Translations under genes and position numbers: made by a program
From: a virus
Length of the DNA stretch: 64,000 nucleotides
Virus record (IMG/VR): IMGVR_UViG_3300031456_000002
Location: 1 to 64,000 of that record
Strand: one strand, 5' to 3'
Shown here: piece by piece, positions 7,836 through 33,945 of the stretch
How positions within the stretch are numbered: position 1 is the stretch's first letter
How the letters are laid out: each line of letters opens with the position of its first letter
Notes under the pieces: generated by a model
What the model was told of the DNA's origin: nothing
Databases searched by the model: none
What the model saw: the letters and a program-made list of their open reading frames with translations, nothing else

Positions 7836-8156
7836 ATGAAATCATTAGGTCAAACTTTGAAGGATGCCAGGGAACTTATTCCACTCACCTTGCGTGGCGT
7901 AGAAAATGCCACTGGAATCTCCAACGCCTATTTATCCATGTTGGAAAACGATAAGATCAAGAAGCCTTCCGCAAACGTTCTGTATAAACTAGCATTCCTT
8001 TACCACATTGAACTGGATGTGCTTTTGTTCGCGGCTGGCATAATAAAAGAAGAACCCCCAGCCGGGTATTCTATTCTGCACGCTATAGGCGAATTAACTC
8101 TCGATGAAAAATCCCAGCTACTCCAGTATCTTAAATTCCTTCGCCATAAAAAATAA
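7836..8156 (+). CDS. XRE-family HTH transcriptional regulator
   Basis: LGQTLKDARE...LTLRGVENATGISNAYLSMLENDKIKKPSANVLYKLA is a classic HTH_3 sequence. Confidence 0.9.
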   Translation: MKSLGQTLKDARELIPLTLRGVENATGISNAYLSMLENDKIKKPSANVLYKLAFLYHIELDVLLFAAGIIKEEPPAGYSILHAIGELTLDEKSQLLQYLKFLRHKK

Positions 8157-8660
8157 ACCCGACTACCCAATTAAACGATATTCTAAACAATAGAGCCCAG
8201 CGATTACGCATACCCACAGATTCAAATCGGCAACCAATTGACTATCTGCGCATTAAGGAAGGGCCCGCACGCCTCATTAAAAGCCCATCATCCAACCCAA
8301 ATTAAAAACCTACCAGAACTCCAAGCAAGAAAGCAAAACCCAACCAGCTCAATGCAATCACGCAGAAGCAGCATGGTTGTTCCCTTGATTAGCACCCCAC
8401 CCGTTTGGGACGGTACCGTCGCGATTGGTGAACTCAAAGTATTTACCCGGGTACCCTCGATTTTGTTTTTGCCTGCTGATTATTAATATGTTGCGCCTGG
8501 TATGCGGGCAAATGGGTTGATGTATTAACTGTTTTGCCTTGTTGATAGCCAATTGATTACCATGCTATTGATGCCCTTGTGTTGTTGATATACGCTATTG
8601 GGGTTAATGGGCGCTATTGGATGATGGGTTGTATAGGCTGTTGCAGGGATAGGGGGGGGT
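8157..8660. other. non-coding strand-skew switch with palindromes (candidate genome-end junction, packaging site or origin)
   Basis: The left half is C/A-rich and the right half G/T-rich. It contains GACGGTACCGTC (8409-8420), GGGTACCC (8449-8456), a 12-bp inverted repeat at 8284-8295/8617-8628 and a G8 run. Confidence 0.45.
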
Positions 8661-8682: not shown

Positions 8683-8843
8683 TTAGTTATTTTATCTTAT
8701 TTATTTGTTAGTTCGTTTAGTTGCCCGTACCTTAGTCGTGGGAACTAAACCGACACGAAAGCAAGTTAGTTGTGTGTTAGTTTTTAGTTCCAGAACTAAC
8801 TTTTAAACTAAAAAACGAATGGAAGAACTAATCATAGAACTAA
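8683..8843 (+). promoter_or_regulatory. promoter TTTG-N20-TACCTTAG embedded in 11 TTAGTT/AACTAA repeats
   Basis: TTTG at 8704-8707 and TACCTTAG at 8728-8735. An inverted pair TTAGTTC-CA-GAACTAA lies at 8784-8799. Confidence 0.55.
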
Positions 8844-10054
8844 GGAAGGTTGTTGACGCTGGAACCAAGAAAAGCGAATTAGAAGAAAGTATCGGATTGC
8901 CCAAAAATAGCTTATCGGCGGTTTTGAGTGGCTCGAAGGATATGCCAGAAAGTTGGATTGCTAAAATTCAGTCGTTCCTGCAAAAGCCAATAGCTGAAGT
9001 CCCATTGGATAAAGAATCTTCCAAGCAAATGGTGGTTACAGATTCGGGTGCTTTGAATTTAGCCCCATCAAAAGAAGCTCTCCAAAGAGGTAAAGAAGCT
9101 ATGGATAAGATCAATAAGGATTTTGGCGAAGGCTCAATAATGCGACTGGGGGATAAGCCTATGGGGAATATTGGGTTTGTGCCTACGGGGTCATTAGGGC
9201 TTGATTACGCCCTCGGGGTCGGCGGCCTTCCTCGTGGTCGAATTACTGAAATTTATGGCCCTGAAAGCTCAGGGAAGACAACCGTCGCGCTTCACGTAAT
9301 TGCTGAGGCGCAAAAAAGAGGCGGCAACTGTGCTTTCATTGACATTGAACACGCTTTTGATGAAACTTATGCCAAAGCGATTGGGGTTAATATTGAAGAA
9401 TTGCATCTTTCGCAACCAGATTATGGAGAACAGGCTTTAGAAGAGGCTGATCGATTGATCACTTCCGGGGCCTTTAGTGTTGTGGTGATTGATTCGGTCG
9501 CCGCCCTTGTGCCTAAAGCTGAATTAGAGGGCGAAATGGGCGATAGTAAAATGGGGTTGCAGGCACGCCTTATGTCACAAGCATGCCGAAAATTGACGGG
9601 AACCATATCTAAAACAAGTACTATTTGCATATTTATCAACCAATTACGGTCTACAATTGGTAATCCATATCAACCGCAAGAAATTACAACCGGGGGGAAT
9701 GCGCTTAAGTTTTATGCATCTGTTCGTTTAGATGTTAGAAAAATAGCTCAGTTAAAGGACGGAGACGAAGCGTATGGGAATAGGGTTCGAGTGAAAGTAG
9801 TAAAAAACAAGGTTGCGCCGCCATTTAAAAACTGTGAGTATGACATAGTTTTCGGAGAGGGGATTGATAAAATCGGGGAACTTGTGGAAATCGCAGCCAA
9901 TCTGAATGTTATCAAAAAAGCTGGCGCGTGGTATAGTTATAATGATGCAAAACTTGGGCAAGGAAAAGAGGCCGCGAAACAACTCTTAAAAGATAATGTG
10001 GCTCTTTTAGAAGAAATCCAAAAATTAACTAAAGACAAGCTAAATGAACGATAA
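8819..10054 (+). CDS. recA: RecA recombinase with fused N-terminal XRE-like HTH domain
   Basis: Walker [33 protein letters not shown] and [11 protein letters not shown]. The N-terminal [22 protein letters not shown] is HTH-like. Confidence 0.95.
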
Positions 10055-10222
10055 AAAAGATGAAAGGATAAAGGAGCTGGAAGATTTTGTCCGGCTCCTT
10101 ATTAAAAGATGCCCACTTCCTAGCCCTTTTTATGAAGCAGCTAGGGCATTAAATGTTGTTATTTACCCAGATAAAATAACAAATAAGACAGAGGATGGTA
10201 TTTAACCTTAATAATTAATTAT

Positions 10223-10762
10223 ATGACAACAGATCAAAAAGCACTTTCTTGGGCGATTAATAAGCACAAAGAAACCAATCACTTGTACGATGGAAAACCA
10301 TATGAAGTACACCTTTGGCAAGTAGTAGATGTTGCAAAAATGTTCATTCACTGCATTAGAGAAGAAGATATAGAGCTTGTTTATGCCGTATGTTGGCTTC
10401 ATGACACAATTGAAGATTGTAGAGTAACATATAACGATGTAAAGCAAGAATTTGGCATTGAAATAGCCGAAGGGGTCTATGCCTTAACAAATGAAAAGGG
10501 TCGGAACAGAAAAGAACGCGCTAATGGGAAATACTACGAAGGCATAAGAAACACCAATGTGGCAGCATTTGTTAAAATATGCGATAGGATCGCGAATGTT
10601 AAATATTCTTTTGAATCTGGTAGCTCCATGTTAAAGAAATATTTTGATGAAAACGAGTGGTTTATGCTTCAGGTTGATTCAGAAAAGAAGTATTTAACAA
10701 TGTGGGCTTATCTGCAATCATTTCTGAAGATTATAGACAGCCCAGAACACAACAAACAATAA
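10223..10762 (+). CDS. HD-domain small alarmone hydrolase-like protein (SpoT/Mesh1 hydrolase fold)
   Basis: H...Y..KPYEVHL, WLHDTIED, VYALT and VKICDRIAN motifs. Confidence 0.85.
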   Translation: MTTDQKALSWAINKHKETNHLYDGKPYEVHLWQVVDVAKMFIHCIREEDIELVYAVCWLHDTIEDCRVTYNDVKQEFGIEIAEGVYALTNEKGRNRKERANGKYYEGIRNTNVAAFVKICDRIANVKYSFESGSSMLKKYFDENEWFMLQVDSEKKYLTMWAYLQSFLKIIDSPEHNKQ

Positions 10763-21789: not shown

Positions 21790-22192
21790 GTTAGAAAAAC
21801 TAATAATTGAAGCCCGGTTAGATGGGCAAAGTTTTTCATTAATGGATGAAGTAAACCAAAGGCATAGTTGTGATCAGATTATGTTAAAGGGGGCTGCTAT
21901 AAGTGGTTGTTCGCTTCCGCAAACCGATTTCTTTGCGGAAATTATTTCTAATCAAATATGTGAATTTATTGTCAAATTCGGGTATGGTGAATTGACTTTG
22001 AATGAGATTATTCTTGCACTTCAAATGAATGCTAAAATAGGCTTGCGTTATCCTTCGGGCGCGGAAGTAGAACAAAGCGTATTCATTGGCAATTGTTTTC
22101 ATGTAGATTTCTTGGGAAAGGTGTTGTATAACTACATGTCACTTAGGAATTTATTAGATAATAAATTCAAAAACGTAATTGACGGATATTAA
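21776..22192 (+). CDS. replication-associated hypothetical protein (possible helicase loader)
   Basis: Sits between the initiator and primase-helicase genes and overlaps both. Confidence 0.4.
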   Translation: MKLTELEKLIIEARLDGQSFSLMDEVNQRHSCDQIMLKGAAISGCSLPQTDFFAEIISNQICEFIVKFGYGELTLNEIILALQMNAKIGLRYPSGAEVEQSVFIGNCFHVDFLGKVLYNYMSLRNLLDNKFKNVIDGY

Positions 22193-24306
22193 TGAATTGT
22201 CAAGATTTACATAGCATCGAAGGTTTGCAGTTTATGCCCGTAAAGGCTAATAAACAACCAATTATAAAGGGATGGCAGACTTCTGCCGAAAAGCATGATT
22301 TAAGTAATTGCACGGCAGTTGGCTTAGTGTGCGGTAAGCTCTCTGGTAACCTAGAAGTTATCGATATCGATCTCAAGTATGATTTAACCGGTAAGATTTA
22401 TGATACATATAAAAGACTGATCAATGAGATAGATAACACTTTACTAAACAGACTGGTAGTTCAACAAACTAAGAGCGGAGGCTACCATTTTTTGTATCGC
22501 TGCCAGGTCATTGCTGGGAATCTTAAGTTAGCCAATCGGGTTACTACCGAACAGGAACGACAAGAAACATATCAAGACGCCTACAAAAATGAACTTTCAA
22601 AAAGCACGCCCGACGATAAAGCGAAGGCAATAGCCGCCAAGGCGTCTGAAAACGACAAGGTTCGCGTATTGTTTGAAACAAGGGGCGAAGGCGGCCAAAT
22701 AGTTTGCCATCCTACAAGCGGCTATAAAATCGTTTACGGGGATTTTTATTCTATTTCTGAGATTACAACAGATCAGAGGGATATACTTCATGGAATTGCG
22801 CGGCAGTTTAACGAAGTCATCGAGGAAGAGGCTATTCCGCTAAAGAAAATGGTTTTTGACCGCAAGACGGGGGGGCTTTCGGTTTTTGATGATTATAACT
22901 TGCGTGGGGATGTTTGTGTATTGCTGCAAGAGCATGGCTGGAAGTTCGTTTCTCAGAAGGGTCAAAAGTCAGTATTCTTGCGACCTGGTCAAGCCACATC
23001 TCAAACCAGCGGCAATTTCGATCATGCTAAAAATTGGTTTAGCGTATTTACTACCAGCACTGAATTTGAGCCACAAAAAGCCTATTTGCCCTATGCAGTA
23101 TTCGCTGTGCTTGAATGCAATAAAGACTATTCAGCAGCCCACAAAAGGTTGTTAGAATTGGGATATGGCGACAAGCCAGAAGAAAAAAAGAAGGAGACGG
23201 AAAGCACCAGGGCCATAAAATCGCGCATTAATCCAGAAGATGGGGATTTATCTTTTTTGGCAAAATCGGTAGACTATGATGAATACCTGCAACAAGTTCG
23301 TGACGGGACTTTAAAACAAGGATTAACTACCGGCAGCCCATATTTAGATGAATTTTTTCTATTCAAAGAAGGCAATTTGGTAATGACCAATGGGCACGAT
23401 AACACAGGAAAGTCTGTTTTTACTTGGTGGTTGCTTTTACTGGCTGCAATGTATCATGGATGGAGAGGGATAATATTTTCTAGTGAAAATACATTGGGAG
23501 CTTTCATGCGAAAAATGATTCAGTTTTATTGGGGAAAATCATTATATGGTAAGTTCGCCATGAATGATACCGAATATCAGATAGCAAAAACATTCATAGA
23601 AAAACATTTTTCGTTAATAAAAGCGCAAGAGGATTTATACAACTACAAGGATATTATCAACATGGTTAAGAAGGCAAGGAAATCATCTAAGTATGATTAC
23701 GGAATGATTGATCCTTACAACTCTCTAAAGATAGATTTAAGCGGCTTTAGTAAACTATCAACGCATGAATATCACTACGAAGCATTGAGCGAAATAAAAT
23801 CATATGGTCAACAAAATAATTTTGGATGGTTCGTAAATCACCACGCAGTTACAGCAGCATTAAGGGCTAAGGATGGCGAAAAGAAATATCCGGTAGCGCC
23901 TCAAAAGGCAGATACGGAGGGCGGCGGGAAGGTGAGTAATAAAGCCGACGATTTTATAACCATACATCGCATAACACAACACCCTACCGATTGGATGGTA
24001 ACGGAATTACACGTAAGAAAAATAAAAGATACCGAAACTGGTGGTAGAATAACATCAATTGATAACCCGGTAAAGTTTGAGATGTATAAAGGTGGGTGTG
24101 CTTTTATTGAACGTCGGGAAGATGGGCTAAGAAATATTGATCCTATATATCAGTGGCATTTGAATAACGGGTCAGTGCAGCAAGAGTTATATGAATCGAC
24201 AAAGGAATTGACAAGACCATCTAATGGTCATTCTAAAGTTGTTGATATAAATGGATGGATGCCTTTTAAAGACAAAGATTTAGAAACAGACGAAGATCCT
24301 TTTTAA
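22192..24306 (+). CDS. bifunctional primase-polymerase fused to an SF4 (DnaB/T7 gp4-like) helicase
   Basis: N-terminal Prim-Pol motifs VIDID, TKSGGYHF and ETRGEGG. Helicase Walker A GHDNTGKS, MIDPYN, GGGK..NKADDFITIHR and VRKIK. Confidence 0.85.
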   Translation: MNCQDLHSIEGLQFMPVKANKQPIIKGWQTSAEKHDLSNCTAVGLVCGKLSGNLEVIDIDLKYDLTGKIYDTYKRLINEIDNTLLNRLVVQQTKSGGYHFLYRCQVIAGNLKLANRVTTEQERQETYQDAYKNELSKSTPDDKAKAIAAKASENDKVRVLFETRGEGGQIVCHPTSGYKIVYGDFYSISEITTDQRDILHGIARQFNEVIEEEAIPLKKMVFDRKTGGLSVFDDYNLRGDVCVLLQEHGWKFVSQKGQKSVFLRPGQATSQTSGNFDHAKNWFSVFTTSTEFEPQKAYLPYAVFAVLECNKDYSAAHKRLLELGYGDKPEEKKKETESTRAIKSRINPEDGDLSFLAKSVDYDEYLQQVRDGTLKQGLTTGSPYLDEFFLFKEGNLVMTNGHDNTGKSVFTWWLLLLAAMYHGWRGIIFSSENTLGAFMRKMIQFYWGKSLYGKFAMNDTEYQIAKTFIEKHFSLIKAQEDLYNYKDIINMVKKARKSSKYDYGMIDPYNSLKIDLSGFSKLSTHEYHYEALSEIKSYGQQNNFGWFVNHHAVTAALRAKDGEKKYPVAPQKADTEGGGKVSNKADDFITIHRITQHPTDWMVTELHVRKIKDTETGGRITSIDNPVKFEMYKGGCAFIERREDGLRNIDPIYQWHLNNGSVQQELYESTKELTRPSNGHSKVVDINGWMPFKDKDLETDEDPF

Positions 24307-32376: not shown

Positions 32377-33945
32377 ATGAACAAGAAGACGCTTTATGGA
32401 GCCGAAGCAAGGGCTAAGTTATTGTCAGGAGTTAAGAAAATCGCAGCAGCGGTCAAGGTGACCTTAGGCCCGATGGGTCGGAACGTTCTTATATCGCAAA
32501 GCATGGTTATTGATTATGGGGTGCATAATCTTCCCATCCATGTTACGAAAGACGGATATACGACTACTAGGGCGTTTGAGATCAATGATGATCCTTTTGA
32601 ACAAGCTGGCGTGTTAATGATAAAAGAAGCGGCTCAGAAATCAGTAGATCAGGCTGGTGACGGCACAACAACAACAGTGGTGTTAGCTGAGGCTATTGTT
32701 GAAAAGGCAATCGAAGCCATTGTCGCAGGAGGTAATCCAGTCGAGTTGAAGCGCAGTATTGATAAGGGGGTGCAGGAGGTAGTAGAACAGCTTAAGGGAA
32801 TGGCCATTCCTATTAAAGGGAATATTGATCGTATCCGACAAATCGCGACCATTTCGGCTAACAACGATTCGGCAATGGGGGAATTAATAGCAGATGCCTT
32901 TAGTAAAATAGGAGAAGAAGGGGTTATTGATCTTGAAAAAGGGCAATCAGTGAATACAGAAATAAGAATTGCCGATGGCTACAAATGGGATCAAAGTTGG
33001 GTAAGTCCTTATTTCATTAATAATAAGGAGAAGCAAATATGCGAATTCGAAAACCCTATTATTCTATTGTATGATAAAATGATAAAACATCATACTCAGA
33101 TTATAAGAGCCCTGGAGTTGATTCAGAAAAGCGGCAGACCGCTATTGATAGTTTGCGAAGATTCTATTGAAGAAGGGTTATCAACATTAGCGGTTAATAA
33201 TCTACAAGGACGATTCAAGATATGTGTAGTAAAATCCCCCGAGTTCAATGAAAAAAGAAGAGAAGCGATGGAGGATATTGCATTGATTACCGGCGCTACC
33301 TATATCAGCGATACGAAAGGCATTGATATAAAGGAAATGGAATTCGACCATTTTGGGCATGCAAAGAAGGTATTGGTAACGAAAGAAGAAACTGTTATTA
33401 TCGGAGGCGCGGGGAATAAGGAGGACTTGGAAAACCTTCTGAATGAACTGAAGATAAATATGGTTCAAGCAAAGAATGAAGACGAAAGTGCGCCTATCGA
33501 AAGAAGGATAGCGAAGTTAACAGGGGGAGTAGCTGTTATTTCAGTTGGAGCGGCTACGGAAACTGAAATGAAAGAGAAACTGGATAGATTTGATGATGCC
33601 GTAAGGGCTGTTAAAGCTGCATTGAGTGAAGGATTTATCGTTGGTGGCGGCACAGCCTTTTTACGGGTAAAAACTTCAAGTGATATAATAAATAGCATAC
33701 TTCGTATTCCTCTATGGCAAATTTGTAGCAACGCTGGCAAAGAAAGTTCCGCTGATCGTATTATACATGATGTAGAATCTTTCAAAAACAATGTTGGGTA
33801 TAACGCCAAAACTGATCAAATCGTAGACTTGATTGATGCTGGGGTTATTGACCCGGCTAAAGTGTTGAGATGTGCTATTACTAATGCAGCTTCGAGCGCA
33901 GGTATGATCATTACGACTGAGGCTCTTATTTGTGACACTATGTAA
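32377..33945 (+). CDS. groEL: chaperonin GroEL
   Basis: VKVTLGPMGRNV, VTKDG, AGDGTTT, AKLTGGVAVI and GVIDPAKV. Confidence 0.95.
   Translation: MNKKTLYGAEARAKLLSGVKKIAAAVKVTLGPMGRNVLISQSMVIDYGVHNLPIHVTKDGYTTTRAFEINDDPFEQAGVLMIKEAAQKSVDQAGDGTTTTVVLAEAIVEKAIEAIVAGGNPVELKRSIDKGVQEVVEQLKGMAIPIKGNIDRIRQIATISANNDSAMGELIADAFSKIGEEGVIDLEKGQSVNTEIRIADGYKWDQSWVSPYFINNKEKQICEFENPIILLYDKMIKHHTQIIRALELIQKSGRPLLIVCEDSIEEGLSTLAVNNLQGRFKICVVKSPEFNEKRREAMEDIALITGATYISDTKGIDIKEMEFDHFGHAKKVLVTKEETVIIGGAGNKEDLENLLNELKINMVQAKNEDESAPIERRIAKLTGGVAVISVGAATETEMKEKLDRFDDAVRAVKAALSEGFIVGGGTAFLRVKTSSDIINSILRIPLWQICSNAGKESSADRIIHDVESFKNNVGYNAKTDQIVDLIDAGVIDPAKVLRCAITNAASSAGMIITTEALICDTM

Follow-up and report, generated by a model that had tools for sequence, protein, structure and literature searches.

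We analyzed a stretch of viral DNA of 64,000 nucleotides (positions 1–64,000 of the 78,380-bp IMG/VR record IMGVR_UViG_3300031456_000002; hereafter the window) and addressed a gene, here termed HTH-recA, whose open reading frame (ORF) encodes a predicted helix-turn-helix (HTH) domain followed in frame by a complete RecA. The gene lies behind, and begins within, a dense array of ACTAA/TTAGT units, which are the half-sites of the CTAA-N5-TTAG operator bound by the LexA repressor of the presumable host group; the features of the locus are collected in table 1. The window carries tailed-phage genes for portal, large terminase, virion protein, GroEL, and primase-polymerase, and neither a tyrosine integrase nor an S24 peptidase/repressor was found when the phage was searched for them; thus, this ~78-kb soil phage is virulent-looking. 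Relatives were found by searching with residues 1–95 alone. Eleven related loci (L001–L011) were compared, of which L010 and L011 are near-duplicates of L005 and L002, and the counts of LexA boxes in these loci use nine. The alignment of RecA fusions comprised 32 sequences, and the AlphaFold2 model of the domain was built from an alignment of 73 sequences.

Table 1. Positions of the HTH-recA gene, its parts, and the adjacent DNA elements in the window
Feature	Position	Strand	Basis or remark
Non-coding region	8157..8660		C-rich to G-rich switch near 8400–8450; G8 run at 8650–8657
Array of 11 TTAGTT/AACTAA hexamers	8683..8843		11 per 200 nt, against 0.22 expected
Putative Bacteroidota-type promoter, TTTG-N20-TACCTTAG	8704..8735	+	Inferred from reading the sequence
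Imperfect inverted repeat, TTAGTC-N5-AACTAA	8732..8748		Overlaps the putative -7 element and transcription start
16-bp palindrome, TTAGTTC-CA-GAACTAA (TTAGTTCCAGAACTAA)	8784..8799		Sole exact TTAGTT-N4-AACTAA in the genome
HTH-recA ORF	8819..10054, stop codon included	+	411 residues; ATG start
Predicted XRE/lambda-repressor-fold HTH domain, residues 1–57	8819..8989	+	AlphaFold2, Foldseek, VIA, ESM Atlas, transitive Pfam HTH_3/HTH_26 matches
Decayed remnant of ACTAA-N5-TTAGT (ACTAA-N5-GTTGT, two mismatches)	8839..8853	+	Exact at this place in 6 of 9 relatives
Linker, residues 58–82	8990..9064	+	Alignment; predicted local distance difference test (pLDDT) below 50 in both models
Complete RecA, residues 83–411	9065..10051	+	Pfam, structure alignments, 69–70% identity to Chitinophagaceae RecA

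The HTH-RecA Fusion Protein

The C-terminal part of the protein showed all the characteristics of RecA. Pfam RecA was matched at residues 92–350 (E = 2.5e-123, 411.1 bits) and RecA_C at residues 353–408 (72.7 bits), each against a cut-off of 27 bits, and in a phmmer search of solved structures residues 92–407 aligned with Escherichia coli RecA (3cmu). Walker A (GPESSGKTT), Walker B (in the IDSVAAL stretch), the catalytic Glu, and loops L1 and L2, with the EGEMGDS loop and a further stretch of 10 residues, are conserved relative to the E. coli protein. The alignment with RecA of D. radiodurans (1xp8) begins at residue 84, and residues 83–104, which correspond to the N-terminal oligomerization helix, are predicted to be helical in the full-length model; no solved RecA chain aligned to residues 1–83. 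The core is most closely comparable to the RecA of Panacibacter and Flavisolibacter, to which the identity in the table refers. Like the RecA proteins of Chitinophagaceae, it comprises PF00154 and PF21096 with Walker A and B, L1, L2, the N-terminal helix, and the C-terminal domain; however, the nearest cellular RecA proteins listed (320–345 residues) do not have the ~82 extra N-terminal residues of the phage protein. When 27 fused cores were placed with 26 RecA cores of Bacteroidota in an unrooted maximum-likelihood tree, they made up one side of a branch with support of 100/98, and the lineages nearest to them across that branch were Chitinophagaceae. We infer that a Chitinophagaceae-like recA was captured once and fused once, and the same kinship may serve as a pointer to a Chitinophagaceae-like host group.

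A first-pass annotation of the window had described a complete RecA with an in-frame N-terminal extension of about 90 residues, and this description was confirmed by the ORF, by Pfam, and by the relatives. About 90 residues precede the Pfam RecA match, with the HTH-like peptide of that annotation at residues 17–46, and the N-terminus is shared by 76 proteins of 249–687 residues (nearly all 394–416), many of which come from contigs of 58–101 kb. All 76 have RecA domains; the alternative raised earlier, that relatives would encode the two parts separately, was not observed in any of them. In the 32-sequence alignment, M1 and 22 further positions of residues 1–57 are invariant, and a 16-residue stretch of the N-terminal domain is almost unchanged. 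The invariant positions, together with the constant presence of RecA domains, indicate that the extension is no random open frame. In addition, the codons at the invariant residues within 21–38 occur in three to five synonymous forms each, which indicates that selection acts on the protein and that the N-terminal part is translated. The linker is rich in Pro and Glu and varies in both length and sequence, the frame is always kept, and a short hairpin motif (MVVxxxGxLxL) is weakly conserved within it.

It might be argued that two genes were wrongly joined by gene calling or assembly, or that translation truly starts at an internal Met, since Met codons are present at residues 71 and 95. However, M71 and M95 are unconserved in the same alignment, unlike M1, the open frame persists in the 76 relatives despite the varying linker lengths, and the synonymous variation speaks for translation of the N-terminal part; we therefore regard such an artefact as hardly credible. 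M95 lies in the N-terminal helix of RecA, and a start there would cut this helix, so an obligatory short isoform is not indicated. These sequence comparisons indicated a fusion that is made as a single protein and kept by purifying selection.

At 90% identity, the fusion clade resolves into more than 100 clusters, almost all made up of contigs from soil or freshwater metagenomes. The N-terminus found no match in 50,697 deposited phage genomes by tblastn, no relative was detected when bacterial species representatives were scanned with the N-terminal profile, and a full-text literature search turned up no report of an HTH domain at the N-terminus of a RecA. The parts are known, and their combination and embedding in SOS-type operator DNA are new to us. 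Two members of the family deserve separate mention. One relative (P0009, 687 residues) carries an intein domain (PF14890) inside its RecA part. Another (P0246), which at 405 residues has the length of an HTH-RecA, is deposited at NCBI as the RecA of a metagenome-assembled genome of a Nitrososphaeraceae archaeon; its source was probably a phage contig that binning had assigned to a genome other than its own.

Residues 1–57 are predicted to be a four-helix HTH domain of the XRE/lambda-repressor fold, with the HTH itself at residues 18–37. In the AlphaFold2 model, the helices span residues 2–13, 18–25, 31–37, and 44–55 (pLDDT 82–88) and are followed by the low-confidence linker; the full-length model gave the same domain fold, with the domain not docked on RecA. 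The top Foldseek matches in the PDB were all of the lambda-repressor/XRE type (434 repressor and Cro, C.AhdI, SinR, MqsA, HipB, HigA, and MuB's N-terminal domain), with probabilities of up to 0.97 and with weak E-values (0.2–1), which we attribute to the domain having only 57 residues. A VIA-align comparison with 48,161 chains yielded Z values of 5.5–7.7 over 54–65 residues; MuB's N-terminal domain ranked first (2mqk; Z 7.7, root-mean-square deviation 2.0, 59 of 65 residues, 20% identity), and XRE-type and CUT/POU-type domains ranked after it. Because Z values of 6–8 are common for small helical domains, the fold call rests on the uniformity of the match list. A structure search of the ESM Atlas returned HTH_3 and HTH_31 clusters, and PDB sequences gave no match to the N-terminal profile. 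The earlier suggestion that the N-terminus is an HTH was thus borne out by the predicted fold, by the Foldseek and VIA matches, and by HTH_3 matches within the wider family.

This wider family was delineated by an exhaustive profile search, in which 161 representative proteins were found to carry the same N-terminal module. When 73 of them were analyzed with Pfam, HTH_3 was matched in eight (E ≤ 0.01, best 5.1e-07), HTH_26 in four, and HTH_19 and HTH_31 in one each; coiled-coil-type matches were also present (ZapB in two, YabA in one). Many of the 161 are not RecA proteins but small proteins with unrelated C-terminal parts, which marks the domain as a mobile N-terminal module. The signature reads G-L-P-x-N-S-L-S ... 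G ... P, and E22, N30, and L32 are invariant across the wider family; within the fusion clade, K29, N30, and S31, which open the third (recognition) helix, show little or no variation. In XRE-type domains, residues at such positions usually make DNA contacts. Compared with the XRE, Cro, and CI domains, the phage domain shares the four-helix fold and differs by the GLPxNSLS signature, E22, and one extra turn residue. In addition, the phage domain is joined to a recombinase and not to a dimerization or peptidase domain.

No second copy of the HTH domain is present in the phage. A scan of viral contigs for five of the members that are not RecA (P0087, P0091, P0095, P0100, and P0113) gave no match, and a cluster look-up of non-RecA proteins with the same domain returned no informative names. 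In a further protein of the family (P0082, 292 residues), the HTH domain and linker run into the middle part of a class I/II aminotransferase (profile positions 137–356); this looks like a chimeric assembly and not a real architecture.

The ACTAA/TTAGT Array and the Host LexA Operator

The array is laid out with TTAGTT units on its left and AACTAA units on its right; it crosses the start codon of HTH-recA and extends into codons 3–4 and 7–8, with the half-sites spaced ~10–12 bp apart. It is unique in the 78-kb genome, in which the next best 200-nt window has three hexamers, and it is kept upstream of HTH-recA in the related loci. At the place of the 16-bp palindrome, the loci L001, L003, and L006 carry a TTAGT-N6-ACTAA element. 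The codon of Leu4 is CTA in 10 of 10 loci and that of Leu8 in 9 of 10, while CTA accounts for 10% of the Leu codons in the genome and as many as four codons are found at other invariant Leu positions. Thus, the retention of a rare codon at Leu4 and Leu8 indicates that the array is selected for its nucleotide sequence. We considered and rejected an RNA structure of the leader, as the fold of positions 8740–8860 was no better than those of shuffled sequences (z = -1.2). The presence of units in both orientations, together with the lack of an RNA fold, makes a double-stranded DNA element more likely.

A scan for sigma-70 promoters and terminators found nothing, and the promoter in table 1 is a putative one of the Bacteroidota type; L006 carries the promoter consensus TACCTTTG at its place. 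We also observed a different repeated motif, AATAACTTTTT, in two or three copies with a spacing of 21–22 nt (at -11, -32, and -54 of the start) in L002, L004, L007, and L009; the window holds the related AACTAACTTTT once, at 8794–8804.

The half-sites connect the array with a known regulatory system. The non-canonical LexA of Bacteroidetes combines an HTH_3 N-terminus with an S24 peptidase and binds CTAA-N5-TTAG, as determined by electrophoretic mobility shift assay (EMSA) (Sanchez-Osuna et al. 2021, PMC8565304). In the same study, changes in the spacer length abolished LexA binding in EMSA, recA belonged to the regulon, and the regulons were large in Chitinophagaceae (PMC8565304). Consistent with this, we found (A/G)CTAA-N5-TTAG(T/C) upstream of the recA start in 10 of 15 loci of Chitinophagaceae-type and unclassified Bacteroidota (L020–L075) and in 13 of 20 overall, mostly 60–110 nt before the start, and the LexA-like and UmuD-like genes of the same host-type genomes carry the box as well. 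In these host recA operators (L020–L032, L072), a third half-site, TTAGT, often lies 8–10 nt before the box.

The phage relatives carry the same operator. Exact ACTAA-N5-TTAGT is present in six of the nine related loci (L002, L004, L005, L007, L008, and L009), with the same half-sites and the same A/T flanks as in the host regulon; it lies at +20 of HTH-recA (+32 in L008), in codons 8–12 of the HTH-coding part. Thus, whereas the LexA box is upstream of the gene in the hosts, in the phages it is inside the coding sequence of the added domain. The motif is scarce elsewhere in these genomes: CTAA-N5-TTAG occurs once in the 72-kb G004, as the HTH-recA box itself, and two to three times in G002 and G005, and the counts in all three are below those of a reversed control pattern. 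From these sites, we judge host LexA control of HTH-recA to be very probable in most of the clade. In the subclade formed by the window, L001, L003, and L006, however, the exact box has been lost and the arrays are the largest (11–13 hexamers); no exact CTAA-N5-TTAG was present between 8600 and 8880 of the window, where the decayed remnant occupies the place of the box. Since LexA needs exact spacing (PMC8565304), the array spacings of this subclade should not suit it.

Candidate Binders of the Array

These observations raised the question of which protein reads the array. A neighboring XRE gene (7836–8156) was considered and rejected: five related records in which the array is kept contain no homologue of this gene, which rules it out as the conserved binder. 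The fused HTH is itself a conserved candidate beside the array. We propose that it binds the half-sites and thereby serves autoregulation or the anchoring of a RecA polymer, a reading that we favor while giving it slightly less than an even chance. The extension would be attached through the ~25-residue linker to the N-terminal oligomerization helix of RecA, and because RecA polymerizes head to tail, the polymer should display many HTH domains, which could occupy half-sites phased at 10–12 bp. Binding would repress the transcription of HTH-recA itself and would also hold a pool of recombinase at the locus, beside a GC-skew switch that marks a possible replication origin; in relatives with a perfect box, host LexA would add SOS control. 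In favor of this reading are the predicted HTH fold, the conserved first residues of the recognition helix, and an array that is unique in the genome, kept in relatives, and constrained at synonymous sites; the exact spacing that LexA needs is absent from the arrays of the window's subclade. The module also precedes the coiled-coil-type tails noted above, and repressors are usually built as an HTH with an oligomerizing tail. Autoregulation through the adjacent repeats, which the first-pass annotation had suggested too, is plausible. Known proteins offer functional analogies. [quoted passage not shown] The same applies to Rad51/RadA, as the N-terminal helix-hairpin-helix fold of Rad51 is unrelated to the phage HTH.

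Several points weigh against binding of the array by the fused domain. First, the array units are host LexA half-sites, which makes host LexA a serious alternative binder. Second, L007 and L009 have GTTATT/AATAAC units in place of the upstream TTAGTT ones, with the recognition helix unchanged. Third, this helix is nearly invariant across the wide family with its different C-terminal parts, and its invariance could equally mean a conserved protein partner. Fourth, the domain is not basic, with nine acidic and eight basic residues in positions 1–57, and the protein missed the Pfam HTH_3 (PF01381) cut-off of 23 bits, scoring 12.7 as a whole and 14.9 for residues 1–99. Finally, the best structural match, MuB's N-terminal domain, is HTH-like and has been reported to take no direct part in the DNA binding of its filament (PMC11292022).

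These points lead to an alternative in which host LexA binds the ACTAA/TTAGT element, so that the phage recA is SOS-regulated, and the HTH-fold domain is an accessory domain of the filament that does not read the element; it would instead serve non-specific capture of double-stranded DNA, filament bundling, or contact with a partner, like that of MuB or, by function, the N-terminal domain of Rad51/RadA. Such a division of roles accommodates the exact boxes of the six relatives and their scarcity elsewhere in G004, G002, and G005, the same box at recA, umuD, and lexA-like genes of Chitinophagaceae, and a motif that is EMSA-validated with recA in its regulon (PMC8565304), as well as the changed upstream motif of L007 and L009. 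MuB of phage Mu, the best structural match, shows the same design, with a small HTH-fold domain flexibly linked before an ATPase that polymerizes on DNA. The ATPase of MuB is AAA+ and that of the phage protein is RecA, the likeness is a structural match only, and the match of the phage domain to PHROG 296 ("DNA transposition protein") was weak (E = 0.07). Against this alternative, small helical domains commonly reach such Z values, and the subclade of the window has the largest arrays, at spacings that LexA should not accept, and no exact box. We regard it as the chief alternative and as somewhat less probable than the favored reading.

A further alternative is that the HTH reads LexA-type half-sites genome-wide, combining autoregulation at its own array with occupancy of host LexA boxes. 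At host SOS operators, the protein could act as an uncleavable substitute or displacer of LexA, or could bring RecA to LexA that occupies an operator. The array consists of the very half-sites of the host operator, the recognition helix starts with K-N-S-L in the phage domain and with K-R-S-L in host LexA, and the close identity of the RecA part to host RecA makes mixed filaments and contact with LexA conceivable. Nevertheless, the phage domain showed no specific homology to the N-terminal domain of host LexA, and descent from that domain was not supported, as hmmsearch found nothing and hhalign, with shallow profiles, gave a probability of 0.09. Action at host operators thus appears improbable.

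RecA is regarded as a sequence-neutral DNA binder that acts on HTH repressors in trans. In this clade of uncultured phages, a RecA with a built-in repressor-type domain is kept under purifying selection, and the gene is embedded in SOS-operator-type DNA, which reaches into its first codons and limits the choice of codons there. If the HTH binds specifically, as we favor, the protein would be a natural site-addressed recombinase, with a bearing on filament nucleation and potential as a tool. If it is not DNA-specific, the protein would join MuB as a second DNA-polymerizing ATPase with an unexplained domain of the HTH fold. If it acts at host LexA boxes, a RecA-repressor chimera would give the virus direct control of the SOS switch. 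Whether or not the domain binds DNA specifically, the Bacteroidetes SOS regulon described in 2021 would extend to phages.

The Upstream Region and the Ends of the Contigs

The non-coding region upstream of the array contains the minimum of the genome-wide cumulative GC skew, at 8402, and is a candidate origin or divergent control region; the minimum is compatible with an origin and is also expected from gene orientation. On the minus strand upstream of HTH-recA lie genes for a Holliday junction resolvase and an exonuclease. It could be considered, in keeping with the tethering proposed in the first-pass annotation but without a genome end, that the array units are origin iterons and that HTH-RecA, as a recombinase bound at the origin, initiates recombination-dependent replication, since the skew minimum lies just upstream, the resolvase and exonuclease are encoded, and the half-sites recur every ~10–12 bp. 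However, GC skew mostly follows the direction of transcription here, the primase-polymerase gene is located elsewhere (22192–24306), no AT-rich unwinding element was identified, and the element matches a transcription operator in the relatives. We therefore regard a role as origin iterons as quite improbable, and less probable than action at host operators.

The first-pass annotation had further suggested that the recombinase is tethered to a terminal region for end joining. This was not supported, as the site lies 8.8 kb inside a contig that CheckV rated 100% complete (78,380 bp) and in which no terminal repeats were found. In 7 of the 11 related loci (L001, L002, L004, L005, L008, L010, and L011), the contig starts 170–320 nt upstream of recA, beside G-runs, and G001 and G002, at their far ends, and the present contig, at its right end (78280–78380), show G/C-runs with a GCTATTGG-like motif. 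The contig ends near recA could reflect a coverage gap or assembly break at the G-run, strain variation in an arm of ~9 kb with small genes, or a true genome end. IMG/VR assigns inverted terminal repeats to a related record (G005, with ends L012/L013); with 100% identity over exactly 127 bp, they have a length that suggests an assembler k-mer artefact.

Other genes of the phage were noted in passing. Downstream of HTH-recA, an ORF of 53 residues (10044–10205) overlaps the recA stop codon by 11 nt and is followed by a gene for an HD-type phosphohydrolase (10223–10762; PHROG 990). The GroEL-type chaperonin gene, at 32377–33945, is full-length (PHROG 5725, E = 9e-134).

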